64,000 nucleotides of DNA, from NCBI GenBank assembly GCA_028284805.1, contig JANQQZ010000084.1:5248-69247 (forward strand), in the 5' to 3' direction. Positions 7,872 to 47,723 of this stretch are shown in pieces. The translations under genes were made by a program, and so were the position numbers. Position 1 is the first letter of the stretch. Each line of letters begins with the position of its first letter. The notes beneath the pieces were generated by a model. That model did not search any database and was not told the origin of the DNA. It worked only from the letters and a program-made list of their open reading frames with translations. Source of the stretch: Phycisphaerales bacterium (lineage in GTDB: Bacteria > Planctomycetota > Phycisphaerae > Phycisphaerales > UBA1924).

Positions 7872-7905
7872 GAGAGAGGGCTTGCTCACCGCCTGATCGT
7901 ATGGA

Positions 7906-8997: not shown

Positions 8998-9217
8998 GGT
9001 GATCTCCCTTTGTGGGCAGGAGATTCGGGGGAAACATCGGCCCGATGCACGTTCCGATCAAAAATCGGAATACCGGCTCCGATTGTCTGTGTGGACCTTA
9101 GTTTAGATACATATGCACAATACGAAATCGCATCTGAACAGTAACATGCGGCGCATCGTCGACCCGGCAGCGTGCGCACCCGGCGCGAGGTTGCACCGGC
9201 TTCGTTTTGTGCATCGC

Positions 9218-9415
9218 TCACGGGCAGCCGGCGTTGAAATTCAGGATCCAGGCGCTGAAGTTGGCGGGGGACAGGGCGTTGTCCCCGTTGGTGTCGGCAA
9301 GGCAGGGCGTGGGATCACGGCCGAACACGACGTAGCCCGCGCCCGCGTGCGGCACGTCGCCCGTAGTGGTCTCTGCACCGATGAGTAAATCGTCGATACC
9401 GTCGCGTGACGGCTC
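9218..9415 (-). pseudogene. start-less C-terminal fragment of an FG-GAP protein with a single-repeat GC-ended tail
   Basis: My translation of the 65 codons between the TGA at 9416-9418 and the TGA at 9218-9220 is EPSRDGIDDLLIGAETTTGDVPHAGAGYVVFGRDPTPCLADTNGDNALSPANFSAWILNFNAGCP. It contains no ATG, GTG or TTG start. It has an FG-GAP-like DGIDDLLIGA...GAGYVVFG block plus half of the tail domain. Confidence 0.55.
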
Positions 9416-9691
9416 TCAGGCCGCGTCGCCGTCGTGCAGCTCGCCGTCCACCAGCTCCACGCGGGAGTACTGGTCGAGGTTGAGCGTCACCAGCTCGCCG
9501 TCGGCCTTGCGCAGCTCGAGACGCTCGATCCACAGCTTCTTGTCCTTGCTGTGCGCGAACCAGGAACCGGTCTTGCTGAAGCCGAACGAGACGACCTCGC
9601 CCTCGACCGCGGCGGCGTGCGAGCCGCTCTGGCGAGGCACCTGCTGCACCACGCGCACCTGCTGACCAACCTCGAGCCGCCTGTCGGACAT
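9416..9691 (-). CDS. small hypothetical protein (91 aa)
   Basis: ORF 9416..9724, with the start set at the internal Met (MSDRRLEVGQQVRVV...). That Met is preceded by TATACT plus 6 nt. Coding-like composition; no domain recognised. Confidence 0.6.
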   Translation of the reverse strand: MSDRRLEVGQQVRVVQQVPRQSGSHAAAVEGEVVSFGFSKTGSWFAHSKDKKLWIERLELRKADGELVTLNLDQYSRVELVDGELHDGDAA

Positions 9692-9697
9692 GCAGCC

Positions 9698-9703
9698 AGT
9701 ATA
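9698..9703 (-). promoter_or_regulatory. -10-like hexamer TATACT, 6 nt upstream of the ATG at 9691
   Basis: The minus strand reads TATACT-GGCTGC-ATG. Confidence 0.35.
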
Positions 9704-9731
9704 GACGGAACCACCGGCGTCCATCCCCCAC

Positions 9732-9737
9732 TACCAT
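9732..9737 (+). promoter_or_regulatory. -10-like hexamer TACCAT, 6 nt upstream of the lptF-like ATG at 9744
   Basis: The plus strand reads TACCAT-CACGCC-ATG. Confidence 0.35.
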
Positions 9738-9743
9738 CACGCC

Positions 9744-11471
9744 ATGCCGGCCCGCCTGTGGAAGTACATCCTCGCCGACCTGTGGCGGCTGCTCCTGCTC
9801 ACGACCGTCGTGATCGTCACGGTGATCGCGCTCGCTGTGACCATCCGCCCGCTCGCGGACGGCAAGCTCACGCCCCTGCAGGCGATCCACTTCATGGGGC
9901 TAGCGACGATCCCGATGCTGGCGTATGCCGTGCCGTTCGGAGCCGGGTTCGCGGCGACGCTGGTCTACCACCGGATGGCGCAGGACAACGAGCTTGCCGC
10001 GGCTCACGCGGGGGGCGTCGGGCACCGCTCGGTGCTCGCGCCGGCGCTGATCTCGGGCGTGCTGCTCGCGGGCGTGCTTGGGGTGATCAGCGACCAGGTG
10101 ATCCCGCGGTTCCTGCGCACCATGGAGTCCTACGTCCGGCTCTCCATCGCCGACTGGATGGTCGTGCAGCTCACGCTGGGGAACACGTTCGAGTTCAACG
10201 GCACCGTGATCGGCGCGGAAGTGGTCGAGAAGCTCGACCCCGAGAACGTTGAGGGCGCCAAGACGGTTATCGCGCTGGGCAAGCCCGCGTTCCTGTTCCT
10301 CGACAGCGAGGGGCGGGCGAACACCGCGGGCACGGCGCGACGGGCGTTCCTGGCTGTGCGGCCCTCCGATGACCCGTGGGACGGGCCCGACGCGGGCGGT
10401 GGCACGGGCGCCGGGGGCGAGACCCGCTTCGGGTCCGTCGTGACCATCGTCGCGGAGGACTACCGGGGCAGCGGCGCCGGGGGCACGATCGCCAGCGAGG
10501 ACACGTTCCGCTACGACTTCGCGGTGCCGCCAGCGATCGTTGACGACCCGAAGTTCTTCACGTTCTCGCAGCTGCGGATCCTGCGAGAGCACCCAGAGCG
10601 GTTCGATTTCATCGACGAGTTCCGGCACCGCCTCGCGCTGCGCACGGCGTCCGTCGAGTACCTGCGCGATGTCGACACCGATCTTCGCGACGACCAGACC
10701 GCTGCGCTGACCACGGGCGAGGGCGACACGATCACAATCGAAGGGGCGCACCTCTCGGCGGGGCCGGCGCTGCGCCGCAGGGTGATCCCCGCGACGCCGG
10801 GCGTGCCGATCGACATCACGATCCGACGTGCGAGCGGCGAGACGGAGCGGGTCTCGGCGGCGCGGGCGATCCTGAACACCGCGGCGCCCGACGAGCTGAC
10901 ACGAAAGGGAGTCGAGGCACGCCTCGAGCTCGAGCACGTCGCCACGACCGGGCGTTCGGCGGCCGAGAGCATCCGCCTCGCGAGCGAGAGCACCCAGCCG
11001 GTCGCGGGCGTGCGTCGCCAGCGGTCCGTCACCGGGATCGTGACCGACAGCCCGAGGTACGCCGAGCTGCGCACCGGGTCGCTCGACACGGTTCTGGCCG
11101 AGACCGCCTACCTCACCGAGGGCGCCACGAAGTTCCAGGGCGCGATCGAGGCCCACGACAAGCTCGGCGCCATGCGCGTTGACGTGCTGCGCGAGATCAA
11201 CGCGAACATCCACGAGCGCATCGCGATGTCGCTCGCGGGGCTCGTGATGGTGCTGACGGGCGCGGTCGTCGCGATCCGCCTGCGCGACGCGCTGACGCTG
11301 ACCGTCTACCTCTGGGCGTTCTTCCCTGCGCTCTTCTCTGTGCTCGTCATCAGCATGGGCAAGCAGCTCACGCACGAGTTCGGATTCATCGGCGTGCCGA
11401 CGCTCTACCTGGGCGTGCTGATCCCGCTGGGCTACGCCGTTCTCACGTACCAGCAGATCCGCAGGCGATGA
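9744..11471 (+). CDS. LptF/LptG-family (YjgP/YjgQ) LPS export permease with an enlarged periplasmic domain
   Basis: 575 aa. The N-terminus MPARLWKYILADLWRLLLLTTVVIV... and three N-terminal plus three C-terminal TM helices flanking a large soluble domain fit the YjgP/YjgQ architecture. It overlaps the next gene by 4 nt (ATGA). Confidence 0.85.
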   Translation: MPARLWKYILADLWRLLLLTTVVIVTVIALAVTIRPLADGKLTPLQAIHFMGLATIPMLAYAVPFGAGFAATLVYHRMAQDNELAAAHAGGVGHRSVLAPALISGVLLAGVLGVISDQVIPRFLRTMESYVRLSIADWMVVQLTLGNTFEFNGTVIGAEVVEKLDPENVEGAKTVIALGKPAFLFLDSEGRANTAGTARRAFLAVRPSDDPWDGPDAGGGTGAGGETRFGSVVTIVAEDYRGSGAGGTIASEDTFRYDFAVPPAIVDDPKFFTFSQLRILREHPERFDFIDEFRHRLALRTASVEYLRDVDTDLRDDQTAALTTGEGDTITIEGAHLSAGPALRRRVIPATPGVPIDITIRRASGETERVSAARAILNTAAPDELTRKGVEARLELEHVATTGRSAAESIRLASESTQPVAGVRRQRSVTGIVTDSPRYAELRTGSLDTVLAETAYLTEGATKFQGAIEAHDKLGAMRVDVLREINANIHERIAMSLAGLVMVLTGAVVAIRLRDALTLTVYLWAFFPALFSVLVISMGKQLTHEFGFIGVPTLYLGVLIPLGYAVLTYQQIRRR

Positions 11472-16372: not shown

Positions 16373-16846
16373 ATGGAGTTCAAGAACAAGCACCATTCCT
16401 CGCTGCACCAGTTCTTCGCGATCATGGGTCTGGTCGTCAGCGCGTTCTTCCTGACGATCGGGCTGGTGCTCGCGCTGCTGTTTCTCAGCGCCGGGTCCGC
16501 GAAAGGGATGCACCTGCTGGTCGCGCTGCTCATCTCGAGCATCGTCGGGATCGCGCAGGCGGTCTTCGCGCTCAAGCTGCCGAGGCGTGTGCAGTTCTAC
16601 GACCACGGGCTCCGCGCCGTCTCGTTCGCGGGCAAGAAGGACATCGCCTGGGGCACCATCGGCGCGATCGAGTTCCGCCGGATCAAAACAGTGATCGGCA
16701 CGCGCCACCCCGACGCGGGGGCGATCGTCCTCAAGAACAGCCGGGGCACACCGATCCTGCTGATCGGGAAGGGCTTCAGCGACGCCCGGTCGATGGCCCG
16801 GCTCATCCACGAGCAGGCGCCGGACGCGACGTTCACCGAGCGCTAG
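16373..16846 (+). CDS. membrane protein, hypothetical (possible bacterial PH-like C-terminal domain)
   Basis: 157 aa with two TM helices followed by a small soluble domain. The function call is tentative. Confidence 0.6.
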   Translation: MEFKNKHHSSLHQFFAIMGLVVSAFFLTIGLVLALLFLSAGSAKGMHLLVALLISSIVGIAQAVFALKLPRRVQFYDHGLRAVSFAGKKDIAWGTIGAIEFRRIKTVIGTRHPDAGAIVLKNSRGTPILLIGKGFSDARSMARLIHEQAPDATFTER

Positions 16847-18381
16847 CCCAGCTTGGCGAGCAGGATCTCGCGCACCGCCTTCGCGTCCGCCTGGCCCCCG
16901 CTGCGCTTCATCACCTCGCCGATGAGGCGCCCGATCGCCTGCTGCTTCCCGCCCCGGATCTGATCGGCGATCTCGGGGAAGGCCGCGATCACCTCGTCGG
17001 CCCAGCCCTCGAGCGCGCCCGTGTCGGTCACCTGGAGCAGGTTCTCCCGCTCCGCGATCGCGCGGGGCGTGTCGCCCGACCCGATCAACAGTTCCAGGAT
17101 CTTCTCGGCGCCGTTGCCGCTGATCTCGTTCGACTGGCGGAGCACGACGACCTCGCCGATCTTCGCTGCATCGAGCCCGAGCGCCGCGACCGATGTCTCT
17201 CGTTCGTTCGCGATCCGCCCGAGCCCCTGAACGACCAGGTTCGCCGCAAGCTTCGCGGCCTCGGCCCGGTCGATGCCCGACGAGGCCGCCGCCTCGACCG
17301 CGCCGTCGAACAGATCCGCCATGCCGCGGTCGAAGGCGATCTGCTGCGCGTCGCGGTCCGCGAGCCCCAGACCGTCGCGGTACCGCGTCGCGCGCTCGAC
17401 CGGGAGTGTTGGAAGGCACTCGCGCACCGACTTCTTCCACGCGCTGTCGACAACCACGGGCACCAGGTCCGGGTCGGGGAAGTAGCGGTAGTCCAGCGCA
17501 TCCTCCTTCGACCGCTGGAGGAACGTGGCCTCTTTCGCGTCATCCCAGCCGCGCGTCGACTTCATCGCGGGCCCGTGCTCCTCGCCCGTCTCGACCCACC
17601 GGCTGGGCTGCTGCCTCAGCTCGTGGCGGATCGCGCCCGCGACCGACCGGAACGAGTTCAGGTTCTTGACCTCGACGATCGGCGTCGTGACCGTGCGCCC
17701 GTCCTTCATCGTGAGCACGCAGTTGATGTTGGGCTCGAAGCGCATCTGCCCCTTCTGCATGTCGCCTCCGGTCACGCCCAGGAACCGGCACGTCGCGTGC
17801 AAGACGCGGCAGAAGGCCATCGCGTCCTCGACCCGACGGAAGTCCGGCGCCGTCACGATCTCGAGCAGGGGTGTCCCGGCGCGGTTCAGATCGACCTGCG
17901 AACCAGATCCGCCCTCGTGGGTCAGCTTGCCCGCGTCTTCCTCGAGGTGCGCGCGCACGATGCCGACCCGGCAGCCCTCGCCCCCGAACTCGAGCCACCC
18001 CGCGTCGTCCATCGCGGGCACGTCCACCGCTCCGTCGAAGCACAGAGGCAGGTCGTACTGGCTCAGCTGGTACGCCTTGGGCAGGTCCGGGTAGAAGTAG
18101 CTCTTGCGGTCCCAGACGCTCCGCTCAGCGATCGAGCAGCCGAGCGCCATGCCGACGAGCATGGACATCTCGACCGCCGCCCGGTTCATCACGGGCAGAG
18201 CCCCGGGCAGCGCGAGCACGACCGGGTCGATCAGCGTGTTGGGCTCGGCGTCCTCGAAGTCGGGGTGCGCCGGGCTCGGCGCGGACGCGAACATCTTGCG
18301 CCGCGTCGCCAACTCGACGTGGATCTCCATGCCGACGACCAACTGAACCGATTCGATCGTGTCGTGGGAACGCTCGCTCAC
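16843..18381 (-). CDS. gatB: Asp-tRNA(Asn)/Glu-tRNA(Gln) amidotransferase subunit B
   Basis: 512 aa with VVGMEIHVEL, DLNRAGTPLLEIVT, RFEPNIN and a C-terminal YqeY/GatB domain. It has a GTG start. Confidence 0.95.
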   Translation of the reverse strand: MSERSHDTIESVQLVVGMEIHVELATRRKMFASAPSPAHPDFEDAEPNTLIDPVVLALPGALPVMNRAAVEMSMLVGMALGCSIAERSVWDRKSYFYPDLPKAYQLSQYDLPLCFDGAVDVPAMDDAGWLEFGGEGCRVGIVRAHLEEDAGKLTHEGGSGSQVDLNRAGTPLLEIVTAPDFRRVEDAMAFCRVLHATCRFLGVTGGDMQKGQMRFEPNINCVLTMKDGRTVTTPIVEVKNLNSFRSVAGAIRHELRQQPSRWVETGEEHGPAMKSTRGWDDAKEATFLQRSKEDALDYRYFPDPDLVPVVVDSAWKKSVRECLPTLPVERATRYRDGLGLADRDAQQIAFDRGMADLFDGAVEAAASSGIDRAEAAKLAANLVVQGLGRIANERETSVAALGLDAAKIGEVVVLRQSNEISGNGAEKILELLIGSGDTPRAIAERENLLQVTDTGALEGWADEVIAAFPEIADQIRGGKQQAIGRLIGEVMKRSGGQADAKAVREILLAKLG

Positions 18382-22518: not shown

Positions 22519-23160
22519 CTATCCGCGCCGACGACGCCCCATGAGCAGCACGCCCGACGCCAGGACCGCAACGCTCGCGGGGGCAGGCACGATCGTCAGC
22601 GTCGGCAAGAAGAGCAGCGGCGGGGCAGAAAACGGCACCGTGCCCGCGCTGCCGTCGGCACGCTGGTAGAAGAACACCTCGCCGAACGAGCCGTCCTCGT
22701 ACGCGCCGGTGAACTGCCCGACGATCGTGATATCCGCAAAGATGGTGCGCTCGGTGTCGTCCGTGATGAGCATGTCGTAGGTGTAGATCGAGAGCGGGTT
22801 CGAGGAATCGGGGGTGCCCAGAGGCGAAAGGCTCTGCGAGCCGACCGCGCCCGTGATCGAGTCGCCCGAAGCCGTGCCGTTGACCGCTGGAAAGAGGCCA
22901 TCGAACGCGGGCAGGTAGGCGTTGTTCGAGAGCTCCACCCCGGCATCGCCCCCGTAGTCGAGCCCGAATCCGATATCGAGCACCGTCGCGAGAACCGTGC
23001 GATCGGACGGCACGCTGTCGAGTTCGGCGATGATCGTCCAGGTCACGACATCGCCCAGACGTGCCGTCGACTGGCTTGGGTACGCGCCGATCACCAGGTT
23101 CTGGGCCTGAACCGCGGGGCTCAGGGCGGCAACGGCAACAGCAGCATGGCACGGTCGCAT
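22519..23160 (-). CDS. PEP-CTERM-type sorting-domain protein, hypothetical
   Basis: It has a signal peptide and the C-terminus IVPAPASVAVLASGVLLMGRRRRG. It is convergent with the previous gene, and the two stops are 3 nt apart. Confidence 0.75.
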   Translation of the reverse strand: MRPCHAAVAVAALSPAVQAQNLVIGAYPSQSTARLGDVVTWTIIAELDSVPSDRTVLATVLDIGFGLDYGGDAGVELSNNAYLPAFDGLFPAVNGTASGDSITGAVGSQSLSPLGTPDSSNPLSIYTYDMLITDDTERTIFADITIVGQFTGAYEDGSFGEVFFYQRADGSAGTVPFSAPPLLFLPTLTIVPAPASVAVLASGVLLMGRRRRG

Positions 23161-23263
23161 GGGTCTATCCCTCCTCGTCTAAGGAAGTAGACAGCGGACT
23201 TGCCTTCCGGGACAAGAGGTATGTGGCGCTTTCGTTCCAAATTCATCGGATTCGGGCGTCCGA

Positions 23264-27568: not shown

Positions 27569-28633
27569 ATGCCAGGACGAGCCGCCACGCTATCGATCGC
27601 CGCTGTCGCTCTGGCCTCAGCGACGACCTCGGCTGCCCAGCTCGGCGCATCCTGCCCACTCGCTTTGACACCAGCCCAGGCGCTGGAGGCCCGCGCGAAC
27701 CTCGAGGCCGGGCTCTACGACGCCCCGCCGATCGCGAGCCTCGGCACGACGGTCATCCCCATCGTCGCCCATGTCGTCCGCCGATCCGACGGCACAGGCG
27801 GGCTCAGCCAGGTCGACCTCGACCAGAGCTTCCTCGACGCCCAGGCCCACTTCACGCCGGGCGGCTTCGAGCTCTGCGTCGCCGACGTGCTGTTCATCGA
27901 CGACGACGGCTTCTACTCGGGCATCGACTCGATGGCGGAGCTCGATACGCTCCGCTCGACCAACCCCGTGCAAGGAGCGATCAACATCTACTTCACCGAG
28001 GAGCTGTCCTCGGGCGGCTCCACCATCTGCGGGATGTCCTCCTTCACCTTCTCGAGCGTGCAGGGCATCGTCGTCCGCAACGCGTGTACCGCGGCAGGGA
28101 GCAACACCTCGACGCTCGCGCACGAGATCGGACACTACTTCGATCTCTTCCACACGCACGAGAACGCGCTGGGCACCGAGTGCGTCGACGGGTCGAACTG
28201 CACAACCAACGGCGACCAGCTCTGCGACACCCCCGCCGATCCCAACGTGCTGGGTGAGGTTGACACCTCTTGCACCTGGTTCGGCTCCGCGAGCGACCCC
28301 TGCGGAAGCGGGCTCCCCTTCGACCCGCCCGTTTTCAACCTGATGAGCTACAGCACCACCGCGTGTCGCCAGCAGTTCACGCCCCAGCAACTCGGCCGCG
28401 TGCTCGCGACGCTGACCAACCTGCGCACCGACCTCGACCCGGCTCTCTGCGAGCCCGCCTGCGACAGCCCCGCCGACGCCAACGCCGACGGCGAGCTCAC
28501 CCCCGCCGACTTCAACGCCTGGATCCTCGCCTTCAACACCAACGATCCCATCGCCGACCAGAACGCCGACGGGTTGATCAACCCGTCAGACTTCAACGCG
28601 TGGATCCTGAACTACAACGCCGGCTGCCCATAA
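27569..28633 (+). CDS. secreted zinc metalloprotease, M43 (pappalysin/cytophagalysin)-like, with GC-ended dockerin-like tail (Cys-poor variant)
   Basis: It has a signal peptide, the metzincin motif HEIGHYFDLFHTH and a downstream CDTPADP. The tail is CDSPADANADGELTPADFNAWILAFNTNDPIADQNADGLINPSDFNAWILNYNAGCP (nt 28460-28633). Confidence 0.85.
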   Translation: MPGRAATLSIAAVALASATTSAAQLGASCPLALTPAQALEARANLEAGLYDAPPIASLGTTVIPIVAHVVRRSDGTGGLSQVDLDQSFLDAQAHFTPGGFELCVADVLFIDDDGFYSGIDSMAELDTLRSTNPVQGAINIYFTEELSSGGSTICGMSSFTFSSVQGIVVRNACTAAGSNTSTLAHEIGHYFDLFHTHENALGTECVDGSNCTTNGDQLCDTPADPNVLGEVDTSCTWFGSASDPCGSGLPFDPPVFNLMSYSTTACRQQFTPQQLGRVLATLTNLRTDLDPALCEPACDSPADANADGELTPADFNAWILAFNTNDPIADQNADGLINPSDFNAWILNYNAGCP

Positions 28634-28727
28634 CCCTGGGAGGTCCCGCCGGCTTGCACAAGATTCACTTTTGATCCACCGCGGGTGCCGGTACGCTGTA
28701 TGCAATTCTTGTTCTGGAGGAACCGAG

Positions 28728-31298
28728 ATGCGCACGTCCCTGTCGATTGTCCTCGTGTCTGGCCTTGCCTCGAGCACCGCCGGTCAGTCCGTCCCGGCGG
28801 AGCTAGCCGATCTCGTCCGCGTCGACAGCCCCGACGCGATCGTGCGCGTGATCGGTGAGCTGGACTCGCCCGACGCCGACCCCGCGGTCATCGAGGTCGT
28901 CGCGCCGGCGTCCGTCGCGGTGACGATCGGCGACGCCGAGCCCGTCGTGCTGGGCAGCCTCTTCCTCCCCGCTGATCTGCTCGACATCCAGACCGACCCG
29001 CCCGAGGGCGACATGGGCGCCGCAGTCCGCTACCTGCCCGATGGGAGCGGCTTCATCGTGCTCAACCGCGACAGCCAGAACCTCGTCCGGTTCGACGCGA
29101 GCAACCCCTCGGTGGATCCCACCGCCATCGCGCTGCCCGAGCTGGCGGTCGGCTTCGACATCACGCCCGACGGCGCAACAGCGGTCGTCGCGAACCTCAA
29201 CGCCGACTCTGCCTCCGTTGTCGACCTGGCGACCGGGAACACGACCACCATCTCCGTGGGCGACTTCCCGGGCAGCGTGATCGTCTCGCCCGACGGGACC
29301 TACGCCGTCATCGGGTGCGGGGGCGATTCCACGCTTCACGTCATCAACCTCTCGACGCTCGCGGTCGAACGCGTGATCGGCTCGCCGCAGTTCGCGTCGA
29401 TCCTGTCCTTCGGCACCGAGAGCGCCGCGGTCGACTACCGCTTCACGACGCCTCTGGTCTTCCTCGACAACACCACCCTCGCGTTCCCCGGGCGGTTCGA
29501 CGACGTGCTCGCGTTCATCGATGTCGCGACGGGCACGCGCACCGACCTCGCGCTCTCTCAGACCGACCCCGCGGGCATCGACGTGGTGGGCAGCACCATC
29601 GTCGTCGGGCACGCGATCAACCCGGGCTTCGTCACGGTTATCGACGCGGGCACCCAGACCGAGCTGCGCACAATCAACACCGCCAACACCCGCGCCAACG
29701 GGCCCCTGGCCCTGAACGCCGACGCGACCAAGGTCGCTGTCGCGCTGCAGAACACGACGCGTGTTCTCGATCTGACGACCGACACGTTCGGCGGCACGCT
29801 CGACACCTCGAACCTCAACGACATCAAGCCCAACTTCGACCGCACCCGAGCGGTCGGCATCGGCTTCTCGGGCGCCGTGATCGACTTCGCAACCGGCGTC
29901 CGCCTCGCCCGGGCAAACGACCGCGTCTCCGCCGCCCACGGCGCTGTCAGCCCCACCGCCGATCAGTCCGCCATGATCTCGACCACGTTCGGCGATGACC
30001 TCGTCGTCATCGAGACCGATGCCTCGCCTGCGCTCGAGTTCTTTGGTGACTCCGGGCCGGGCACCGAGGGCGACCTGAGCCGCAACGCCGCGATCAGCGC
30101 CGACGGCACGCTCGCCGCCAGCTCCAACCTCTTCAGCGACAACCTCACCATCTTCGACACCGCTACGGGCAACCAGACCGCCCTGGGCACACTCAACGAG
30201 CGACCGGGCGAGGTCGAGCTCACCCCGGATGGCTCCACCGCGGTGGTCTGCAATCTCGATGGCTTCTTCGTGAGCATCGTCGACACCGCCACCGGTACCA
30301 GCACGCAGGTGCCGTCCGCGCGCCGCCTCGCCCAGGTCGAGATCTCACCCGACGGGCAGTTCGCCTATCTCGCGCAGGTTGCCAGCGGCGACGGCATCCG
30401 CAAGCTGGATCTCGCTACCAACTCGTTCATCGGCGGGCTCACCGCGACCGGCAACCTGGGCGGCGTCGGCTACAGCTACAGCCAGAACTCGCAGATCGCG
30501 CTGAACCCGGACGGCACCCTGCTCGCCGTCGCCAGCTCGTTCACCGACGATCTCATCCTCGTCGACACCGCGACCATGCTCGTCACCCAGACCCTCATCC
30601 CGGGCGACTTCCCGACGCGCGTCGACTGGAGCGACGATGGCCAGCTCGTGCTCGTTGCCAACCGCAACGAGGACAGCGTCACCGTCTTCAACGACATCAC
30701 AGGCACGGGCGTCTTCGGCGAGCTCGGCACCGTGAGCGTCGGCGACTCGCCCTTCGACATGCTCGTCGCGCCCGACAACGCGACCGCCTACGTGCTCAAC
30801 TGGGGCGACTCCACACTCGGTGTGATGGACCTGAACACCTTCACACAGACCGCCACCGTGCCCCTGCCCTACCGACCGATGGGCCTGAGCTTCAACGAGG
30901 ACGCGACCGAGATCCGCGTCGCGGGCGGCAGCGCAGCGACCAGCGCGGGCGGCGGCGCGTTCACGCAGACCCGCGAGGGCGAGCTGACCGTCATCGATCT
31001 CGCGACGCTCACCGTCGTCGATCAGGTCGACACGGGCCAGCCCAACGCCAGCTACGCCGCCAGTGCCGACGGCGCGACGATCGTCTACGCCTCGCCCGGC
31101 GCCGACGGGCTCGCCCTCGTCCGCGAGGACAACTGCGTCGCAGACACCAACGGCGACGGGCTGCTCACCCCGGCGGACTTCAACGGGTGGATCATCGCGT
31201 TCAACACGCAGTCGCCCGCGTGCGATCAGAACGCGGACGGGCTGTGCACGCCCGCCGACTTCAACGCATGGATCATCAACTTCAACAACGGCTGCTAG
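28728..31298 (+). CDS. secreted multi-blade beta-propeller repeat protein (YVTN/YncE-like repeats) with GC-ended dockerin-like tail
   Basis: The start is at MRTSLSIVLVSGLASSTAGQ, after GGAGG. It has many ~40-aa repeats of the type I(T/S)PDG..AVV.N..SDS(V/L)(S/T)V(I/F)D. The tail is [54 protein letters not shown] (nt 31134-31298). Confidence 0.85.
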   Translation: MRTSLSIVLVSGLASSTAGQSVPAELADLVRVDSPDAIVRVIGELDSPDADPAVIEVVAPASVAVTIGDAEPVVLGSLFLPADLLDIQTDPPEGDMGAAVRYLPDGSGFIVLNRDSQNLVRFDASNPSVDPTAIALPELAVGFDITPDGATAVVANLNADSASVVDLATGNTTTISVGDFPGSVIVSPDGTYAVIGCGGDSTLHVINLSTLAVERVIGSPQFASILSFGTESAAVDYRFTTPLVFLDNTTLAFPGRFDDVLAFIDVATGTRTDLALSQTDPAGIDVVGSTIVVGHAINPGFVTVIDAGTQTELRTINTANTRANGPLALNADATKVAVALQNTTRVLDLTTDTFGGTLDTSNLNDIKPNFDRTRAVGIGFSGAVIDFATGVRLARANDRVSAAHGAVSPTADQSAMISTTFGDDLVVIETDASPALEFFGDSGPGTEGDLSRNAAISADGTLAASSNLFSDNLTIFDTATGNQTALGTLNERPGEVELTPDGSTAVVCNLDGFFVSIVDTATGTSTQVPSARRLAQVEISPDGQFAYLAQVASGDGIRKLDLATNSFIGGLTATGNLGGVGYSYSQNSQIALNPDGTLLAVASSFTDDLILVDTATMLVTQTLIPGDFPTRVDWSDDGQLVLVANRNEDSVTVFNDITGTGVFGELGTVSVGDSPFDMLVAPDNATAYVLNWGDSTLGVMDLNTFTQTATVPLPYRPMGLSFNEDATEIRVAGGSAATSAGGGAFTQTREGELTVIDLATLTVVDQVDTGQPNASYAASADGATIVYASPGADGLALVREDNCVADTNGDGLLTPADFNGWIIAFNTQSPACDQNADGLCTPADFNAWIINFNNGC

Positions 31299-31301
31299 CC
31301 G

Positions 31302-32165
31302 TCAGCGGAAGACCACGGTCCGCCGCCCCGAGACCAGCACACGGTCGTCCAGGTGCAGACGCACCGCGTCGGCGAGGACAACCCGCTCAAGGTCGCGCCC
31401 CTTGCGGACCATCTCGGCGACCGCGTCGCGGTGGCTGACCCGCGCCGTCTGCTGCGCGATGATCGGACCCTCGTCCAGCTCGTCGGTGACGTAGTGGCTC
31501 GTGGCGCCGATCAGCTTCACGCCCCGCTCGAAGGCCTGGTGGTAGGGCCTGGCCCCCGCGAACGCGGGCAGGAAGCTGTGGTGGATGTTGACGATGCGCG
31601 CCGGGTACCGCGCGACAGCCCCCGGGCTCAGGATCTGCATGTACCGTGCGAGCACCACCAGATCCGCGCCCGCGGACCCGAGCGCCTCGAGCACGCGCGC
31701 CTCCTGCGCGGGCTTGCCGTCCGCGCCGATCGGCTCGTGCACGAACGGCACACCGGCCTGCTCGGCGAGCGACCGACCCGTCTCGTGGTTGCTCAGCACG
31801 AGCGACACCTCGCCCCCCGCGAACTCACCGTTGGCCGAGCGCCAGAGCAGGTCGCTCAGGCAGTGGGTCTCGGTGCTGCACAGGACCGCGACGCGCCTGG
31901 GCGGCGCGCCCGCCCAGCGGAGGCGGTGGGTGATCGACAGCTCACCCGCGAGCGGCGCGAACGCCGACTCGAACGCCGATGCGGGCTGCCCAGGCGAGGG
32001 CTCGAACTCGACCCGCATGAAGAACCGGCGTGTGTCGGGGTCGGTGTGCTGATCGGCGTCGAGGATGTTCCCGCCCGTGTCCGCGATGAGCGTCGCGACG
32101 CGGGCGACCACCCCGCGCGCATCCGGGCACTCGATCAGCAGTCTGGTCGTCGCCGCGTTGCCCAA
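31302..32165 (-). CDS. purU: formyltetrahydrofolate deformylase
   Basis: It has an ACT-like N-terminus (LLIECPDARGVVARVATLIADTGGNILDADQH) and a formyltransferase core (IVNIHHSFLPAFAGARPY, SHYVTDELDEGPII). The track ORF extends into sucD, so I infer an in-frame TTG start at 32165, which gives 287 aa. Confidence 0.85.
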   Translation of the reverse strand: MGNAATTRLLIECPDARGVVARVATLIADTGGNILDADQHTDPDTRRFFMRVEFEPSPGQPASAFESAFAPLAGELSITHRLRWAGAPPRRVAVLCSTETHCLSDLLWRSANGEFAGGEVSLVLSNHETGRSLAEQAGVPFVHEPIGADGKPAQEARVLEALGSAGADLVVLARYMQILSPGAVARYPARIVNIHHSFLPAFAGARPYHQAFERGVKLIGATSHYVTDELDEGPIIAQQTARVSHRDAVAEMVRKGRDLERVVLADAVRLHLDDRVLVSGRRTVVFR

Positions 32166-32169
32166 CCGG

Positions 32170-33144
32170 TCAGCCCAGGCCCATGGCCCGCGCCATGGCG
32201 GCACCCATGTCCGCCGGGCTCTCCGCGACAGTGATCCCCGCCGACTGCATCGCCTCGATCTTGCTCTCGGCGGTGCCCTTGCCGCCCGCCTCGATGATCG
32301 CGCCCGCGTGCCCCATCCGCTTGCCGGGCGGCGCGGTGCGCCCCGCGATGAACCCTGCAACGGGCTTGGAAACCTTGTTCTTCACGTACGCCGCGGCGGC
32401 CTCTTCGTCGGTCCCGCCGATCTCACCGATCATCAGGATGCCGTGGGTGTCGGGGTCGTTCTCGAACAGCTCGATCGCGTCGATGTGGTTCATGCCCCGC
32501 ACCGGGTCGCCACCGATGCCGATGCAGGTCGACTGACCCAGCCCGAGGTTCGAGGTCTGCCACACCGCCTCGTACGTCAGCGTGCCCGAGCGGCTCACGA
32601 TGCCGACCGACTTGCCGGTCTTCGCCTCGCTCACGTGCGTGTGGATGTAGCCTGGCATGATGCCGATCTTGCAGCCCGCGTCGGTGTAGGGGTCGCTGCC
32701 CGACTCCCCGGAGCCCGTCTTCGGTCCGGGTGTGATGACGCCCGGGCAGTTCGGGCCGATCAGCGTGATCCGGCTCGACGCCTCACGCCCGGCGTTCATC
32801 TCGTCGAGCACCGAGCGCACCTTCACCATGTCCTGCACCGGGATGCCCTCGGTGATCGCGCAGATCAGCTTGATGCCCGCGTCGGCCGCCTCGAGGATCG
32901 CGTCGCCCGCGAACGCCGGCGGAACGAAGATCATCGTCGCGTCCGCGCCCACGCCCTTCACCGCCGCCTCGACCGTGTCGAAGATCGGCAGCCCGTTGTC
33001 GTCCTTCGAGCCGCCCTTGCCGGGGGTCACGCCCCCCACGACCTTCGTGCCGTAGAGGTGGCAGCCCTTGGTGTGCACCGCGCCGAACGAGCCGGTGATG
33101 CCCTGACAGATGACCTTGGTAGACGCGTTGACGAGCACCGCCAT
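32170..33144 (-). CDS. sucD: succinate--CoA ligase subunit alpha
   Basis: It reads [21 protein letters not shown]..., [11 protein letters not shown], and contains the catalytic His in [11 protein letters not shown]. It has two insertions around CPGVITPG...CKIGIMPG relative to E. coli SucD as I recall it. Confidence 0.95.
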
Positions 33145-33226
33145 GATCGGCTCCTGCATGGTTCGGGAAGCGGGACGACGCAGGATAGCCGCCGGGCCCG
33201 CACCCCGCCCGTCGGCAGGTGGCCCG

Positions 33227-34660
33227 TCAGCACCCGTTGTTGAAGTTCACAATCCAGGCGTTGAAGTCCTGAGGCGTGCACAGCCCGTCCCCGTTCTGGT
33301 CGCACGCCGGGCTCTGCGCGTTGAACGCCACGATCCACGCGTTGAAGTCCTGGGGGCTCACCATGCCGTCCCCGTTCGTGTCCGCGCGGCAGGGCGCCTC
33401 GCCGTAGAACACGCGGATCGACACGTCGCCCGAGTAGCCGATCGCGACGTCGGTCACGCCGTCGCTGTTCAGATCGCCGAACACGATCGCCGTGCCCACC
33501 TGCGTCGCGTCGTACGTCCAGCTGGGGGCGTTCGAGAGCGTGCCTCCGTCGTTCAGATAGATGTGGGCGCGTCCGTCGCTGAAATGTACCTCGCCGAGGT
33601 CGGCGTCCCCGTCGCCGTCCACGTCGGCCGCCCGGATGTCCTGCACACCGATGAACGGCGCACCGCTCACCCAGTCCTCGGTCAGCATGGGCGTCGGGCC
33701 GGTCGACGTGTTCAGGTAGCTGGACGACGGGTTGGCCGATCCGCTCCGCCCCACGACGAAGTCGACCTTGTCGTCGCCGTCGAAGTCCGCGGCCGCGGCG
33801 CCGCGATCGGTGGTGGTACGCCCGGTCGTCCACGAGACGCCCGTGTCGAGGCTGCCCGCGTTGTTCCGGTGGATCGCCGTCTCGAAGTTGGCCCACTTGG
33901 TGACGAACACATCGTCGAACCCGTCGCCGTCGTAATCGCCGATCGCGATCGCGTTCTGGATCGAGGCCTCGTCGCTCTCCCACGCCGGAACCGTCGGCAG
34001 CGTGCCGTTGTCGTTGATGAACATGTACATCTTGCGGAACGGGTTGGGCGTCAGGCCCTGGTTCGTGGTGATCACGTCCAGGTCATCGTCGTTGTCGACG
34101 TCGAAGAGCGCCACGCCCAGGCTGAAGGTCGGAACGGGCTCGTTCGCCACCCAGCCCGCCGCCGTCGACGGGCCCGAGGGCGATCCGAAGTAGATCACGC
34201 TGTCGCTGAAACCGGTGCCTCCGTTCGACGTGAAGATGTCCGGGTGCCCGTCCTTGTTGATGTCACCGAGCTTGATGTCGGCGGTCGATGCCTGATCGTC
34301 CGACACCCAGCTCGGGTCCGCTTCGAGGCCCGACCCGGTTCCGAAGTAGACCAGGTTCTGCCAGTTGTCGTAGGGCGGGAAGCTGTTGCTGATGTAACAC
34401 CCCACCGCCAGGTCGTTGTGCCCGTCGCCGTTCAGATCGGCGATCTCGAGCGCGCCGACCTGGCGGCGCAGCGTGTTCTGCCAGTCGGGCTCGGCGCCGA
34501 ACGGCACACCCGCGCCCTCGGCAGCCCACGCCCCCTCACCGGCGTACTGCTCGAAGGTCGCGAGCGTCCGCCCGTCCTCCGACACCTCCACCTGACCGGA
34601 AGCCGACACACAGACCGCGCCCACGAGTCCCACAACCGCCAGCGCGTTGGTTCTGTGCAT
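33227..34660 (-). CDS. secreted FG-GAP/VCBS-repeat protein with GC-ended dockerin-like tail
   Basis: The start is at [23 protein letters not shown]. It has repeated DxNGDGxxD(L/V/I) FG-GAP calcium-loop motifs: [71 protein letters not shown] and [13 protein letters not shown]. The tail is [54 protein letters not shown]. Confidence 0.85.
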
Positions 34661-34685
34661 CCGAGTTCTCCACTCCGTCCAGGCC

Positions 34686-35978
34686 TCAGCAACCATTGTT
34701 GAAGTTCACGATCCAGGCGTTGAAGTCCTGCGGCGTGCAGAGCCCGTCCCCGTTCTGATCGCACGCGGGCGACTGGCTGTTGAACGCCACGATCCACGCG
34801 TTGAAGTCCTGAGGACTGACCACGCCGTCCCCGTTCGTGTCGGCTGGGCACGCCGCGACGATGTCCACCCGGATGATCGCCCGCCCGAGCGAGCCGTTGC
34901 GGCCCTCGAGAGCCGCGTTCACCAGCGCCTGCCCGGCGTCGTTGATGTCCACCCCCCCGCTGAAGCCCGTGATCGTCGCGAGCCCTGCGTCGGTCTCGAC
35001 CTGCGTCCCGACCGCCGCGATCTCGAGCAGATCGACCCCGTCGCCCACGAACACCGCCTGCTCACCGCCCGCGTTGAACGCCCGGAAGACGATCCAGCCA
35101 TCGTTGTTGATGCGCGGGTTGAAGAACGCGATGTCGCTCACGACCCCGTCGTCCTCGTCCGCGTACACGGTGATCGTGCCGTCGGCATCGACACCCAGGA
35201 TCTCGTCGCCCCCGCTCGTGAAGGCATTGATCGCGACGCGACCCGCGTCGTTCAGGTCGGTCCCGTTCAGGAACCCCGTGACCGTGTCGCCCGAAGGCGA
35301 CGGGTCGCCCTCGAGCACCACGGGCGTGAAGCTCCCGTCGCTCTCGAACACGAACACGCCGTCCGCAGCGCCCGCGCGGTTGCCCCGGCACGAAATCCGG
35401 AGCGACTCGTTCAGCCCGATCGTGCTGTTCAGAAAGGTGAACGGGAGCGAGTCGTCCACCGCGATCGGTGTAAACGTGGTCCCGGTGTAGAACCCGATCG
35501 CGTCGTTGAGCGCGAACTCCGCGCGGGTCGCGATCACGCCTGCGTCGTTGATCGTGGGCGTGCCCCAGCCGCTCGCGCCCAGGGGGTTCGTCGTAAGCCG
35601 GCTCGTCACGCCCGTCGACAGGTCGTGCGTCCACACGCCCCAGTTCAGCGGGTTCGGGTCGAGCGTCGTCACCCGCCACACCACGAGCCCGTCGTCGTTC
35701 AGGTTCGGGTCGCTCGTCGAGAAGAACGCCGCTGACACGCTCTGCCCGTTGACCCAGACCACCTTGTCGATGTTCGCATCGAAGTAGCTGAACGTCACGT
35801 CGCCGTTGGCGTTGATCCGCGGCGTTACGTTCGTCACCTGGCTGAACGGGGGCAGCATGAACCCCGGGCCGTCGAAGACGCCCCGAGCCAGCACCTCGTA
35901 TCCAGACACCGAAGAGGGCAACTGGCCGGTAGCCCCACCCGCGATCGACGCGGCCGCACAAGCACACAACACACGCAT
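34686..35978 (-). CDS. secreted repeat protein ((I/L)N(D/N)(A/D)G-type repeats, propeller-like) with GC-ended dockerin-like tail
   Basis: It has a signal peptide (MRVLCACAAASIAGGATGQ) and about 7 repeats marked by INANGDVTF, LNDDGLVVW, INDAGVIATRAEF, LNDAGRVAINAF, INNDGWIVFRAF and INDAGQALVNAAL. The tail is [54 protein letters not shown]. The start could instead be 35996 or 35999. Confidence 0.8.
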   Translation of the reverse strand: MRVLCACAAASIAGGATGQLPSSVSGYEVLARGVFDGPGFMLPPFSQVTNVTPRINANGDVTFSYFDANIDKVVWVNGQSVSAAFFSTSDPNLNDDGLVVWRVTTLDPNPLNWGVWTHDLSTGVTSRLTTNPLGASGWGTPTINDAGVIATRAEFALNDAIGFYTGTTFTPIAVDDSLPFTFLNSTIGLNESLRISCRGNRAGAADGVFVFESDGSFTPVVLEGDPSPSGDTVTGFLNGTDLNDAGRVAINAFTSGGDEILGVDADGTITVYADEDDGVVSDIAFFNPRINNDGWIVFRAFNAGGEQAVFVGDGVDLLEIAAVGTQVETDAGLATITGFSGGVDINDAGQALVNAALEGRNGSLGRAIIRVDIVAACPADTNGDGVVSPQDFNAWIVAFNSQSPACDQNGDGLCTPQDFNAWIVNFNNGC

Positions 35979-36094: not shown

Positions 36095-36547
36095 TCACTC
36101 CTCGATCGGGGCGTTGACCGAGAACGCGGTATCCGTAAACGACTGAGCGCTGGTCCCGCCCCTGGGGTAGACGACCATCGTGCCGGAGAGCCCGACGGTC
36201 CCTGCTGAAGCATCCAGTGGGGACCCGTCGAACGGCACGGTCTGCGTGAGCGACACCGTTCCGCCCTTCGGCAGATCCGTGTGCGTCTCCCACACCCCGC
36301 TCCCGACCGGGTGCGGGCCGAGCGTCAGCTGGTAGTTCACCTGGTACAGGTGCAGGTCGTAGTCCGAGGGGTTCTCGACCGTGAGAGCCAGCACGGCCGC
36401 GTCGGGCGTCAGACGCGCCGACGTCACCGACAGCAACGGGTTCGAGCTGTTCGGCGGGCTGCAGCCCACACCGACTGCCGCGGCACCCAAGAGCAGCACC
36501 CAGGCCTGCAGTCGCACCATCGCTTCAGCTCCTTTCATCCGCGTCAC
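36095..36547 (-). CDS. LEA_2 / WHy-domain lipoprotein
   Basis: It has the lipobox AVGVGC followed by LALTVENPSDYDLHLYQVNYQLTLG..., typical of bacterial LEA14-like (late embryogenesis abundant type 2) proteins. Which of three N-terminal Met codons is used is uncertain. Confidence 0.75.
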   Translation of the reverse strand: MTRMKGAEAMVRLQAWVLLLGAAAVGVGCSPPNSSNPLLSVTSARLTPDAAVLALTVENPSDYDLHLYQVNYQLTLGPHPVGSGVWETHTDLPKGGTVSLTQTVPFDGSPLDASAGTVGLSGTMVVYPRGGTSAQSFTDTAFSVNAPIEE

Positions 36548-45430: not shown

Positions 45431-46462
45431 TCAATCGACGACCTCAACCGCGATCGGATCCGCCTCCCACGACTGCACATCCAATTCTGCGTACGACTCG
45501 AGCACACCGGGCCGGTACGCCACGATCCATTTCCGCGTCACGCGGAAGTCCGGCTCGCGCACCCGGATCTGGTACCGCACCTCGACGCCCTCCTGCCACA
45601 CCGGATCGAAGTCGGCGAGCGGGTCCTCGCTGTCGGGGTTACCGCCGGTCGCCCACCCTCCGCTGCCGCTGATCATGGTGTAGCGGGGCGAGACGCCGTC
45701 CGCGCGGAGCATCCGCCAGTCGAGCCGCCACCCGCGAGGGATCACGATGCCGCGGTTCGACCAGGCCTGCTGCCTCGGGTGCTCCAACCAGATCCGGTCG
45801 CCGCGCGTGTCCATCCGACCAACAAGGGGCACATCGATCAAGCGTTGACCAACCGCCGAGTGCACCACCCGCCGCAGCATTGCTTCCGGCAGATTTGACT
45901 GCACGACGAGTTCCTCTCGGCACCACTGCACGAGCCGAGGCTCATCGTGCTGCCCGACCGGTTCCGGGCTCCATGCCCCGAACCAGCGGTACGCGACACC
46001 ACCCAGGACCTTCGGCATGTCGTAGCACCGGCGCCGTAGTTCTGACCCGTAGGTTGCCCCCCGAAACGCGGCATGACGCCCCGATGCACCCGGCGAACCC
46101 TCTGCCGCCTGAATCACAGGTGCGAAAGCAATCAACGCCGACGTTGGCACCACGCCAACCCACCCCTGCTCCTGCACCCGCGGCACGACCCACAGCCCAT
46201 ACCCACCAACCACCATCGCGAAGAACAGCGCAGCCGCACGCCACCACCGACGACGCGTCCTCGTCAGGTCCTTCGCTTTCGCGTGTGCCCTGCCACACTC
46301 CGGGCAGCTCGCCGGAAGATCACCGACACCGCTCATGTCGTACCAGCACCGCCGGCACCGCTTCCGCCCACGCGGGCGATCCCAGACGAGCGCCCACAGG
46401 ACGCCGACGAACGCCGCCAGCGCCACCGCGTACCCAGACCAGTGCCACACCTCTGCAGGCAT
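45431..46462 (-). CDS. TM-zinc ribbon-TM membrane protein, array member P3 (C-terminal domain type C)
   Basis: 343 aa with the same N-terminal module and a third, distinct C-terminal domain. Confidence 0.8.
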   Translation of the reverse strand: MPAEVWHWSGYAVALAAFVGVLWALVWDRPRGRKRCRRCWYDMSGVGDLPASCPECGRAHAKAKDLTRTRRRWWRAAALFFAMVVGGYGLWVVPRVQEQGWVGVVPTSALIAFAPVIQAAEGSPGASGRHAAFRGATYGSELRRRCYDMPKVLGGVAYRWFGAWSPEPVGQHDEPRLVQWCREELVVQSNLPEAMLRRVVHSAVGQRLIDVPLVGRMDTRGDRIWLEHPRQQAWSNRGIVIPRGWRLDWRMLRADGVSPRYTMISGSGGWATGGNPDSEDPLADFDPVWQEGVEVRYQIRVREPDFRVTRKWIVAYRPGVLESYAELDVQSWEADPIAVEVVD

Positions 46463-46468
46463 CGCCCG

Positions 46469-46474
46469 AGTCTA
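46469..46474 (-). promoter_or_regulatory. -10-like hexamer TAGACT, 6 nt upstream of the P3 ATG
   Basis: The minus strand reads TAGACT-CGGGCG-ATG. Confidence 0.4.
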
Positions 46475-46550: not shown

Positions 46551-47711
46551 TTACAGCGGATCCTCGAACACCCGAGACCGCATCTCAATCTCAGACTCGA
46601 TCAGCTCGATGCCGTTCGGCAGCGTCCCCGTCCACTCTTCGCTGAGCGCATCAGCCTTGGGCAGATAGGTGTACCCGGCATCCGCCGCGATCCGAAACTC
46701 GTTGTATGCGACATCGAACGCCCCGACAAACCGAGACTCGTCGCGCACCACCACCGCGACACGGGTCGCCGCGCCCCGCAACGGCAGCCGACCGAGCTGA
46801 TGACGCCACCCGCCGTCGGGATCCATGTAGTGCACCTCGACGACGTACCCGCGCGGAAGTCCGAGCCGACCCTCGAAACGAACGAAGCCGCCGTAATTGA
46901 AATGCAACCCCTCGGGCGGGCGACGCACGAGACCCTCACGCTTCCACCCGATCCGCTCGATCGGCGTGGACTCGATGAGATCGCGGACGATGCCGATGCA
47001 CCCCGCATCCACAAGCGGCCCGGGCAGCTTGCGCGACCGCACCCATCCCCGCGACACCTCGTCGGTCACGCGGGCCGTGCCCCGCCACGAATCCGACTCT
47101 GCGCTCAGCCCCGCGGCATCCGCCCACCGCCACCACGTGAACGCGAGCACCCGCGTCCGCTCGCCCATCGACCCGGCGCGCACCAGCAGCTCTTCCGCCA
47201 TGCCCTCCGGCGTCTTCCGCAAAACACGGTTGTTCTGCTCCCACTCGGCCTTCGAAAACCGATGGAACCGGTCCGCCTCCGCTCGCTGCGCAGCCGTTGG
47301 TGTCTCTCCCCACTCCGCCAGATCAAACTGGATGCCGCTGATTTGGTCGTTCAGATGTTCAAGCCACGGGCCGGCCGCGATCAGTGCCGTCGTGGGAATC
47401 AGCCCCCACGCCCCGCGCTCCTGCACCCGCGGCACCACCCATAGCCCGTACCCGCCAACCACCATCGCGAGCGACAACAGAGCCGCCCGCCCCCACCGCC
47501 GCCGTGTGCGTGTCAGGTCCTTCGCTTTCGCGTGCGACCTGCCGCACTCCGGACAGCTCGCCGGCAGATCACCGACACCGCTCAGGTCGTACCAGCACCG
47601 CCGGCACCGCTTCCGCCCCCGCGCCCGATCCCAGAAGATCGCCCACACAACACCGACGAACGAAACCAGCGCCACCGCGTACCCAGACCAGTGCCAGATC
47701 CACTCGGGCAT
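46551..47711 (-). CDS. TM-zinc ribbon-TM membrane protein, array member P4 (C-terminal domain type A)
   Basis: 386 aa with the same N-terminal module. The C-terminal domain aligns with P1: DRFHRFSKAEWEQNNRV with DKFHRFARELMDQENRV, IERIGWKREGLVRRPPEG with IERIGWRRENLIPRPVQG, and RVAVVVRDESRFVGAFDVAYNEFRIAADAGYTYLP with RLMVVVRDEARFVAALDIQYPAFRIAADADEKYLP. Confidence 0.8.
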   Translation of the reverse strand: MPEWIWHWSGYAVALVSFVGVVWAIFWDRARGRKRCRRCWYDLSGVGDLPASCPECGRSHAKAKDLTRTRRRWGRAALLSLAMVVGGYGLWVVPRVQERGAWGLIPTTALIAAGPWLEHLNDQISGIQFDLAEWGETPTAAQRAEADRFHRFSKAEWEQNNRVLRKTPEGMAEELLVRAGSMGERTRVLAFTWWRWADAAGLSAESDSWRGTARVTDEVSRGWVRSRKLPGPLVDAGCIGIVRDLIESTPIERIGWKREGLVRRPPEGLHFNYGGFVRFEGRLGLPRGYVVEVHYMDPDGGWRHQLGRLPLRGAATRVAVVVRDESRFVGAFDVAYNEFRIAADAGYTYLPKADALSEEWTGTLPNGIELIESEIEMRSRVFEDPL

Positions 47712-47717
47712 GATGAA

Positions 47718-47723
47718 ATCTTA
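47718..47723 (-). promoter_or_regulatory. -10-like hexamer TAAGAT, 6 nt upstream of the P4 ATG
   Basis: The minus strand reads TAAGAT-TTCATC-ATG. Confidence 0.4.

Follow-up and report, generated by a model that had tools for sequence, protein, structure and literature searches.

What does a C-terminal module of 54 residues do for exported proteins that are otherwise unrelated? The question is raised by a 64,000-nucleotide stretch of DNA from a Phycisphaerales bacterium (assembly GCA_028284805.1, contig JANQQZ010000084.1, positions 5,248 to 69,247; hereafter the window), in which a duplicated DxNxDGxxxPxDFNxWI tail of 54–55 amino acids, here called the GC tail, ends five open reading frames (ORFs) and stops at G-C or G-C-P. 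The GC tail is a catalogued but uncharacterised domain, which routine annotation (PGAP) would already label in these genes, and the window supplies new members of a known family and no new kind of element. What is added here is a confident dockerin-like structural model, the co-loss of two cysteines, the scale and clustering of carriers in Phycisphaerales, and the exchange of the tail with PEP-CTERM-like tags. On this evidence we lean, with some reserve, towards a calcium-loop dockerin-like module that would hold exported passengers non-covalently on a common envelope receptor or in a complex.

Five unrelated, probably exported proteins with one tail

A sequence-only reading of the window had placed the tail on five ORFs with unrelated N-terminal parts; all five are present, and Pfam and NCBIfam scans assign those parts to five different domain families. 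On the forward strand, an M43-type zinc metallopeptidase gene (27569–28633; Peptidase_M43, 34 bits) carries the tail at 28469–28630, ending in GCP, and a YVTN/lactonase-type beta-propeller gene (28728–31298; TIGR02276, 76 bits, with a Lactonase match) carries a 54-residue tail with four cysteines at 31134–31295, ending in GC. The reverse strand holds an FG-GAP repeat protein gene (33227–34660; FG-GAP_3, 98 bits; tail at 33230–33391), an adjacent NxxGxxAF-repeat/DUF7453 ('choice-of-anchor') gene (34686–35978; TIGR05002, 54 bits against a cutoff of 50, with a DUF7453 match; tail at 34689–34850) and a gene with an FGE-sulfatase (formylglycine-generating-enzyme-like) domain (7906–8997; FGE-sulfatase, 82 bits), whose tail at 7909–8073 ends in GCP. 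The stop codon thus follows GC in three of the tails and GCP in two. A profile made from all five scores 106–121 bits on the five ORFs in the six-frame translation of the window (106.5 bits for the M43, 117.3 for the YVTN, 120.7 for the FG-GAP and 115.4 for the FGE-domain protein) and finds nothing there beyond these ORFs and a fragment at 9218–9415. In addition, the back-translated DNA pattern for DFN[AG]WI has 10 matches in the window, two per tail for the five tails, and 0 matches across 100 dinucleotide-preserving shuffles.

The tail of the M43 protein departs from the consensus given in the earlier reading; it is a variant reading ADANADG...DPIADQNADGLINP...NYN and lacks both internal cysteines. 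Pairwise DNA identity among the window tails is 72–88%, with 52–74% at third codon positions. The adjacent FG-GAP and NxxGxxAF tails are the closest pair (94% identical in amino acids, 88% in nucleotides); the remaining pairs share 72–82% of their DNA and 52–70% of third codon positions. That the tails are recent copies of one another was considered and rejected on the 72–82% DNA identity outside the adjacent pair (88%). Judged from these comparisons, the tails are kept by selection rather than recently copied.

Each of the start codons at 27569, 28728, 34660, 35978 and 8997 puts a signal-peptide-like N-terminus at residue 1, as judged by eye. The predicted signal peptides span approximately 27569–27637 in the M43 protein (ending ..TSAA before Q), 28728–28784 in the YVTN protein (..STAG before Q), 34660–34595 in the FG-GAP protein (..SASG before Q), 35978–35925 in the NxxGxxAF protein (..GATG before Q) and 8997–8944 in the FGE-domain protein (..AAQA before Q). 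The claim that carriers bear such N-termini also extends to relatives, since 93 of 110 full-length carriers have a hydrophobic N-terminal stretch by a crude rule applied without a dedicated signal-peptide predictor.

Six occurrences of the tail had been counted in the 64 kb; there are indeed six loci, and the sixth is a single-repeat gene relic, no working gene. This stretch (9218–9415, reverse strand) encodes one FG-GAP-like repeat followed by the half tail PCLADTNGDNALSPANFSAWILNFNAGCP-stop, has no start codon and lies directly downstream of an in-frame stop. The five-tail profile scores 36 bits on it, over profile positions 1–27 only, that is, half of the tail, and its FG-GAP-like piece scores 17.7 bits with FG-GAP; the half tail gives no match to NCBIfam NF041540 at E ≤ 0.01. 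Its best matches are the C-termini of FG-GAP carriers of about 600 residues in locus L056, from another metagenome-assembled genome (MAG), which marks the stretch as what is left of the 3' end of an FG-GAP carrier gene. A neighbouring ORF of 102 amino acids (9416–9724, reverse strand) has good coding statistics and ends exactly where the relic starts, in the same frame; it has no Pfam or NCBIfam family match and no homologue in the related loci.

Family membership and predicted dockerin-like fold

Against NCBIfam NF041540 ('dockerin_GC, GC-type dockerin domain-anchored protein'), whose curated cutoff is 29 bits, the five tails align over the full model and score 33–46 bits; the individual scores are 39.0 bits for the M43, 33.1 for the YVTN, 42.2 for the FG-GAP, 46.2 for the NxxGxxAF and 36.8 for the FGE-domain protein. 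The family name, which the sequence-only reading had suggested, is therefore the correct one, and it is also borne by public proteins from Planctomycetota and Phycisphaerales MAGs whose tails are 60–85% identical. The window proteins are members that have the terminal Gly-Cys and the C-terminal position in common with the family, with no difference in kind; the NF041540 model has 67 positions compared with 54–55 residues in the window tails, and the M43 tail is a two-cysteine variant. The same reading knew of no experimental characterisation of the anchoring mechanism or partner, and the literature searched yields no paper on a 'GC-type dockerin'. A search combining dockerin with Phycisphaerae or Phycisphaerales yields the planctosome hypothesis only, besides unrelated papers, and a 'choice-of-anchor' search yields nothing bearing on the GC tail.

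An AlphaFold2 model of a 60-residue construct carrying the NxxGxxAF tail (34689–34850), computed from a 45-sequence alignment, reaches a mean pLDDT of 90.8 and a pTM of 0.76. It contains long helices at construct residues 19–30 and 47–58, each preceded by a loop, with a three-residue helix between the two loop-helix units and no helix entering loop 1. In the model this order of loop-helix, short helix and loop-helix is the dockerin topology. The top Foldseek TM-scores against the PDB belong to C. thermocellum dockerins (4fl4_J, 0.59; 8x39_B, 0.59; 4fl4_G, 0.56) at a root-mean-square deviation of about 3 Å, and calmodulin-type EF-hand structures score 0.2–0.3. A profile search of PDB sequences finds no close solved relative of the tail; it places EF-hand proteins first (E 1e-6), followed by several clostridial dockerins (E 1e-3 to 1e-2), among them 4fl4_A, 2y3n_B and 2ccl_B. 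EF-hand_1 (PF00036, gathering score 25.4 bits) is passed by two of the five isolated tails (28.6 and 28.8 bits), and the other three fall below it. The earlier suggestion of a dockerin or EF-hand pair is consistent with the structural comparison, which gives a confident model and, at non-significant E-values, dockerins as the nearest structures by TM-score, and with profile matches to both EF-hand proteins and dockerins.

Each loop follows a 12-residue D-x-N-x-D-G-x-(L/V/C)-x-P-x-D layout, and the two loop-helix units stand 27 residues apart. Across 172 unique tails, positions 1, 3, 5, 6 and 12 are D, N, D, G and D and near-invariant in both loops; specifically, the counts at positions 1, 3, 5 and 12 are D170, N169, D170 and D172 in loop 1 and D172, N172, D170 and D172 in loop 2. 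At position 8, loop 1 has L or V and loop 2 has Cys, and the helix after each loop reads F-(N/S/T)-A-W-(I/V)-x-(A/N)-(F/Y)-N. The model and these putative ligand positions together describe a minimal dockerin-like module with two predicted calcium-binding loops, which would be expected to bind calcium.

The cysteines of 174 full tails fall into the patterns CCCC (162), CxxC (11) and CCxC (1), and CxCC does not occur (0); tails without a Cys at position 8 of loop 2 have I, L or F there. Because the two internal cysteines are lost together, a disulfide probably links the Cys preceding loop 2 to the Cys at its position 8. The first Cys is probably bonded to the Cys of the terminal G-C in a second disulfide, as suggested by the invariance of both and by dockerin geometry. 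Covariation is uninformative on this second pairing, as the first and last cysteines are invariant, and the pairing is plausible because, in the dockerin fold, loop 1 starts next to where the last helix ends. G53 is found in 171 and C54 in 172 of the 172 unique tails. Among 144 related proteins the endings are GC (91), GCP (25), GCD (8) and GCG (6), and the 0–2 residues that follow the last Cys are unconserved, which argues against a terminal-Cys mechanism and against a cleavage motif.

Carriers, tag exchange and candidate roles

In a profile search of 1.84 billion representative proteins, 2,591 clusters match at E ≤ 1e-3, of which 841 reach E ≤ 1e-10; in nearly all of the best 150 of the 2,591 clusters the tail match runs to the final residue or the one before it. 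Scanning one genome per GTDB species for the tail pattern picks out eight MAGs, all of them Phycisphaerales or Planctomycetota; two named protein matches come from MAGs labelled Pseudomonadota and Leptolyngbya. Related genomes bear out the earlier description of the tail as a major secretome tag: the examined parts of MAG J06621_18 (two contigs seen, total 3.39 Mb) contain at least 70 distinct carriers, and the densest array holds up to 11 tails in one 20-kb locus. Among 113 carriers the passengers include DUF7453 (16), FG-GAP types, beta-helix, reprolysin, GH10, CBM4_9, endonuclease I, M23 and GDSL lipase, and many carriers have no Pfam match. Related MAGs also contain intact genes with a single-repeat tail (L008 1124–7156, L030 4573–8133, L025 10186–11127 and L035 13146–14084) of the pattern C-P-A-D-Q-N-F-D-G-x-L-x-P-x-D-F-N-x-W-[IV]-x-N-[FY]-N-x-G-C, mostly on tandem beta-helix-like paralogues. 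One public protein, P0177 (544 amino acids), has five internal tail-profile matches, none of them C-terminal, and its end is not GC; it may be a conventional multi-dockerin protein. In a Pfam scan of the 113 carriers, P0177 included, two members, which are not specified, match Dockerin_1, the best at E 2.6e-55.

The tail is exchanged with PEP-CTERM-like tails between paralogues. Specifically, in locus L014 the gene at 7797–8591 ends in the PEP-CTERM-like sequence ..PGQWIRVVPSPGTATLFGIGLIAANRRRR and the adjacent gene at 9038–10216 ends in a GC tail; their products are 33% identical (E 2.6e-25), and the switch of tail falls exactly at ..PGQW(I/V)RVV. The same relation of PEP-CTERM-like to GC tail holds between L015 2123–2803 and L015 385–2082, at 47% identity. 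The hydrophobic tails of these L014 and L015 genes match PEP-CTERM-class models only, scoring 15.2 and 15.4 bits with TIGR02595 against a cutoff of 16. In locus L010, two PEP-CTERM proteins that exceed this cutoff (16520–17233, forward strand, 18.8 bits; 17442–18044, reverse strand, 19.9 bits) lie where a run of nine GC-tail carrier genes ends, which indicates that both tagging systems are used together in one locus. The window was likewise said to hold PEP-CTERM-like tags beside the GC tails: a secreted protein at 22519–23178 (reverse strand) ends in ..IVPAPASVAVLASGVLLMGRRRRG, which is PEP-CTERM-like by eye and whose top matches are all PEP-CTERM-class models, with 14.7 bits on TIGR02595, just under the cutoff. 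Measured by the PEP-CTERM criterion, the GC tails have no hydrophobic stretch and no Arg cluster. The NxxGxxAF protein meets the NCBIfam 'choice-of-anchor' repeat model and resembles the MYXO-CTERM-anchored family MXAN_5453, with a match below cutoff (77 bits against 500). Through the swap between paralogues, the GC tail fills a slot that membrane-anchoring sorting signals hold in homologues, and these sequence relations support an anchoring or sorting role for it.

The predicted signal peptides of the five carriers and of the PEP-CTERM-like protein all end in [A/G]-Q by eye (within 27569–27640, 28728–28787, 34592–34660, 35922–35978, 8941–8997 and 23100–23178), and the mature proteins would start with Gln if the predicted cleavage holds. 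The motif [AGSTV]-x-[AGS]-Q within residues 13–45 occurs in 80 of 110 public full-length carriers, compared with 15 in a control stretch. Such starts could mean pyroglutamate N-termini, which are found on type IX secretion cargo in Bacteroidota.

The window from about 18400 to 38500 is syntenic with L003 1–17136, a contig of Phycisphaerales MAG CTOTU7352, with orthologues 58–93% identical. The YVTN and NxxGxxAF carriers have tailed orthologues there (72% and 84% identical, respectively), and the M43 carrier, the FG-GAP carrier, a LEA_2 lipoprotein gene (36095–36547) and the PEP-CTERM-like gene (22519–23178) are missing; carrier genes are thus gained and lost against a stable housekeeping backbone. 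The LEA_2-type beta-sandwich lipoprotein, encoded next to the carrier cluster, was considered as a partner of the tail and rejected, as it has no homologue in 1.14 Mb of related loci. Elsewhere in the window, two tandem paralogous ORFs on the reverse strand (45431–46471 and 46551–47720) have, by eye, a short hydrophobic start (WHWSGYAVAL...) followed by R/K residues; family searches give no significant match for either, and a single sub-threshold one, MFS_1 on the first at 16.7 bits (cutoff 33.4).

In the dockerin-like reading, the tail, fused to the C-terminus of many unrelated Sec-exported proteins, would fold with calcium after export, whether in the oxidising periplasm or extracellularly, and the folded tail would hold its passenger non-covalently on one common envelope receptor or in a multiprotein complex, as an alternative to PEP-CTERM/exosortase anchoring within the same genomes. 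Family membership, the predicted fold, the conserved ligand positions, the strictly C-terminal placement, the variety of passengers, the copy number and the exchange of tags come from the analysis itself. Calcium binding, the disulfides, retention at the surface, and the existence and nature of a receptor are what we infer.

Several findings weigh against this reading. All five isolated tails stay below the Pfam threshold of Dockerin_1 (PF00404), scoring 21.2, 20.2, 14.3, 17.4 and 17.3 bits (a range of 14–21) against a gathering score of 22.9, with the alignment covering model positions 2–50 of 57. The Foldseek E-values are non-significant (≥2.7), as expected with a 60-residue query, and the conservation of the helix residues could reflect a hydrophobic core instead of a binding face. 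The single-repeat tails in intact genes misfit a classical two-repeat dockerin unless they pair mutually; a lone calcium loop-helix unit cannot build the two-loop fold, which suggests pairing between molecules. Furthermore, no cohesin or other plausible receptor occurs among the window proteins scanned, in agreement with the earlier statement that the window holds no partner candidate, and no cohesin domain occurs in eight large carriers or seven large neighbouring ORFs. When 844 ORFs from 74 loci are clustered, the recurrent neighbours without a tail are all housekeeping genes (ABC ATPase, dihydrolipoamide dehydrogenase, NAD-dependent epimerase, ECF sigma factor and phytoene desaturase) and include no receptor candidate. 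The search for partners covered about 13% (about an eighth) of any one related genome, so that the absence of a cohesin is weak evidence.

Exchange with PEP-CTERM-like sorting tails on paralogues, a strictly C-terminal position, very many cargoes per genome and the near-invariant G53 and C54 (171 and 172 of 172) would also be compatible with a secretion or sorting signal that is read by an outer-membrane translocon or a processing enzyme, as in type IX secretion, and perhaps removed or modified at the terminal Cys. We regard this as unlikely, since the tail has neither a transmembrane helix nor a basic cluster, its all-helical calcium-loop model is unlike any known sorting domain, the Cys need not be terminal and the 0–2 residues after it form no cleavage motif, and no conserved processing gene appears among the recurrent neighbours. 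The absence of a cohesin from the sequences examined speaks in turn for a non-protein ligand: with its calcium sites and its conserved Asn and aromatics, the tail might bind a component of the envelope or of a substrate (for instance polysaccharide, peptidoglycan, or the surface of a mineral or metal), with no cohesin-like protein involved. Asn, Trp and Phe/Tyr are conserved in both helices and are common in carbohydrate-binding sites, and more than 70 cargoes would be expected to saturate a low-copy protein receptor and not a polymer. However, the conserved aromatics are spaced i, i+3/4, i+7, as residues on a buried helix face typically are, the nearest folds belong to dockerins, which bind proteins, and the missing cohesin counts for little at the coverage reached; this explanation, too, seems improbable to us.

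Partner-free function is the remaining alternative, in which the tail would be a calcium switch, or else a cap that depends on calcium, is stapled by disulfides and stabilises its passenger or helps it to fold; passengers would stay unfolded in the low-calcium cytoplasm and be folded outside, as with RTX repeats. The canonical calcium loops fit this idea, as do the two of five isolated tails that pass EF-hand_1 and the EF-hand calcium-binding protein that is the best PDB sequence match. The passengers, however, are structurally unrelated, autonomous folds that are found elsewhere without a GC tail; paralogues swap the tail for a PEP-CTERM-like anchor and not for nothing; and a module of 54 residues is unlikely to govern the folding of passengers of 300–1,800 residues. 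Such a cap is the least convincing of these proposals and in our estimate quite improbable.

The dockerin-like reading can be carried further, in a tentative form that is doubtful as it stands: the GC tail might be the cargo tag of a Phycisphaerales-specific surface display system parallel to exosortase, a doubly disulfide-stapled minimal dockerin with at least 70 cargoes per genome and one receptor that is no recognisable cohesin, whose single repeats pair, possibly as disulfide-linked dimers. If this were true, identifying the receptor would establish a class of dockerin interaction that is new and does without cohesin. Cohesin–dockerin pairs are among the strongest protein–protein interactions and are much used in synthetic biology; to our knowledge, dockerin-like modules outside cellulosomes are genomically common and their partners are mostly unidentified. 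In this marine Phycisphaerales lineage, one highly uniform dockerin-like tail is borne by a large share of the exported proteins, among them peptidases, propellers, integrin-like repeats, glycosidases and nucleases. The lineage therefore offers a clean system for receptor hunting, with a 54-residue bait, a cargo list readable from the genome and a clear prediction of calcium- and disulfide-dependent retention at the cell surface, and what the tail binds becomes a well-posed, testable question.

Comparison with known systems

A close counterpart is the type I dockerin (PF00404; PDB 4FL4, 1OHZ, 2CCL), which, like the GC tail as modelled, repeats a loop-helix ('F-hand') unit of calcium-binding type with Asp at position 12 of the loop, sits at the C-terminus of secreted enzymes and has a three-helix topology. 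The GC tail differs in being shorter (54 residues, period 27), in its four conserved cysteines and obligatory terminal G-C, in passengers that are mostly not carbohydrate-active enzymes, in the single-repeat versions in intact genes, and in that no cohesin is found in the window, the eight large carriers or the seven neighbouring ORFs. Loop positions 10–11, which form a Ser-Thr recognition pair in clostridial dockerins, read P-A/Q in the GC tail. An EF-hand pair (PF00036/PF13499; Entamoeba CaBP, PDB 2JNX) resembles the tail in its paired 12-residue DxNxDG loops with a hydrophobic position 8, and differs from it in that the GC tail has, in the model, no helix entering loop 1, reaches a TM-score of only 0.2–0.3 to the calmodulin type, is predicted to be extracytoplasmic and is cysteine-rich. 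Asp occupies loop position 12 of the GC tail, the position at which Glu is usual in classical EF-hands. The C-terminal domain of type IX secretion cargo is a beta-sandwich of about 70–100 residues, compared with 54 residues modelled entirely as helix and loop in the GC tail, and models of that domain give no match on the five carriers in the family scan.

Within the same class of bacteria, the 'planctosome' proposed for Nemodlikiaceae (Phycisphaerae) consists of cohesin–dockerin pairs that, outside cellulose degradation, would hold metallopeptidases of the M12B reprolysin-like and M14 types on the cell surface (Andrei et al. 2019, PMC6461901). The proposal is purely computational, based on dbCAN and InterPro matches with 0–6 dockerins and 0–1 cohesins per genome (PMC6461901). 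GC-tail carriers likewise include reprolysin-type and M43 peptidases; the planctosome dockerins, however, come from conventional family matches, 0–6 per genome, and may or may not be of the GC type, whereas the GC tail occurs on at least 70 proteins per genome with no cohesin in evidence. The PEP-CTERM/exosortase (TIGR02595) and MYXO-CTERM systems, finally, resemble the GC tail in that they too are modular tags at the C-termini of many unrelated exported proteins within a genome. A PEP-CTERM tag, which a membrane enzyme processes, consists of a motif followed by a transmembrane helix and then an Arg cluster, whereas the GC tail is predicted to be a soluble, folded calcium-loop domain.

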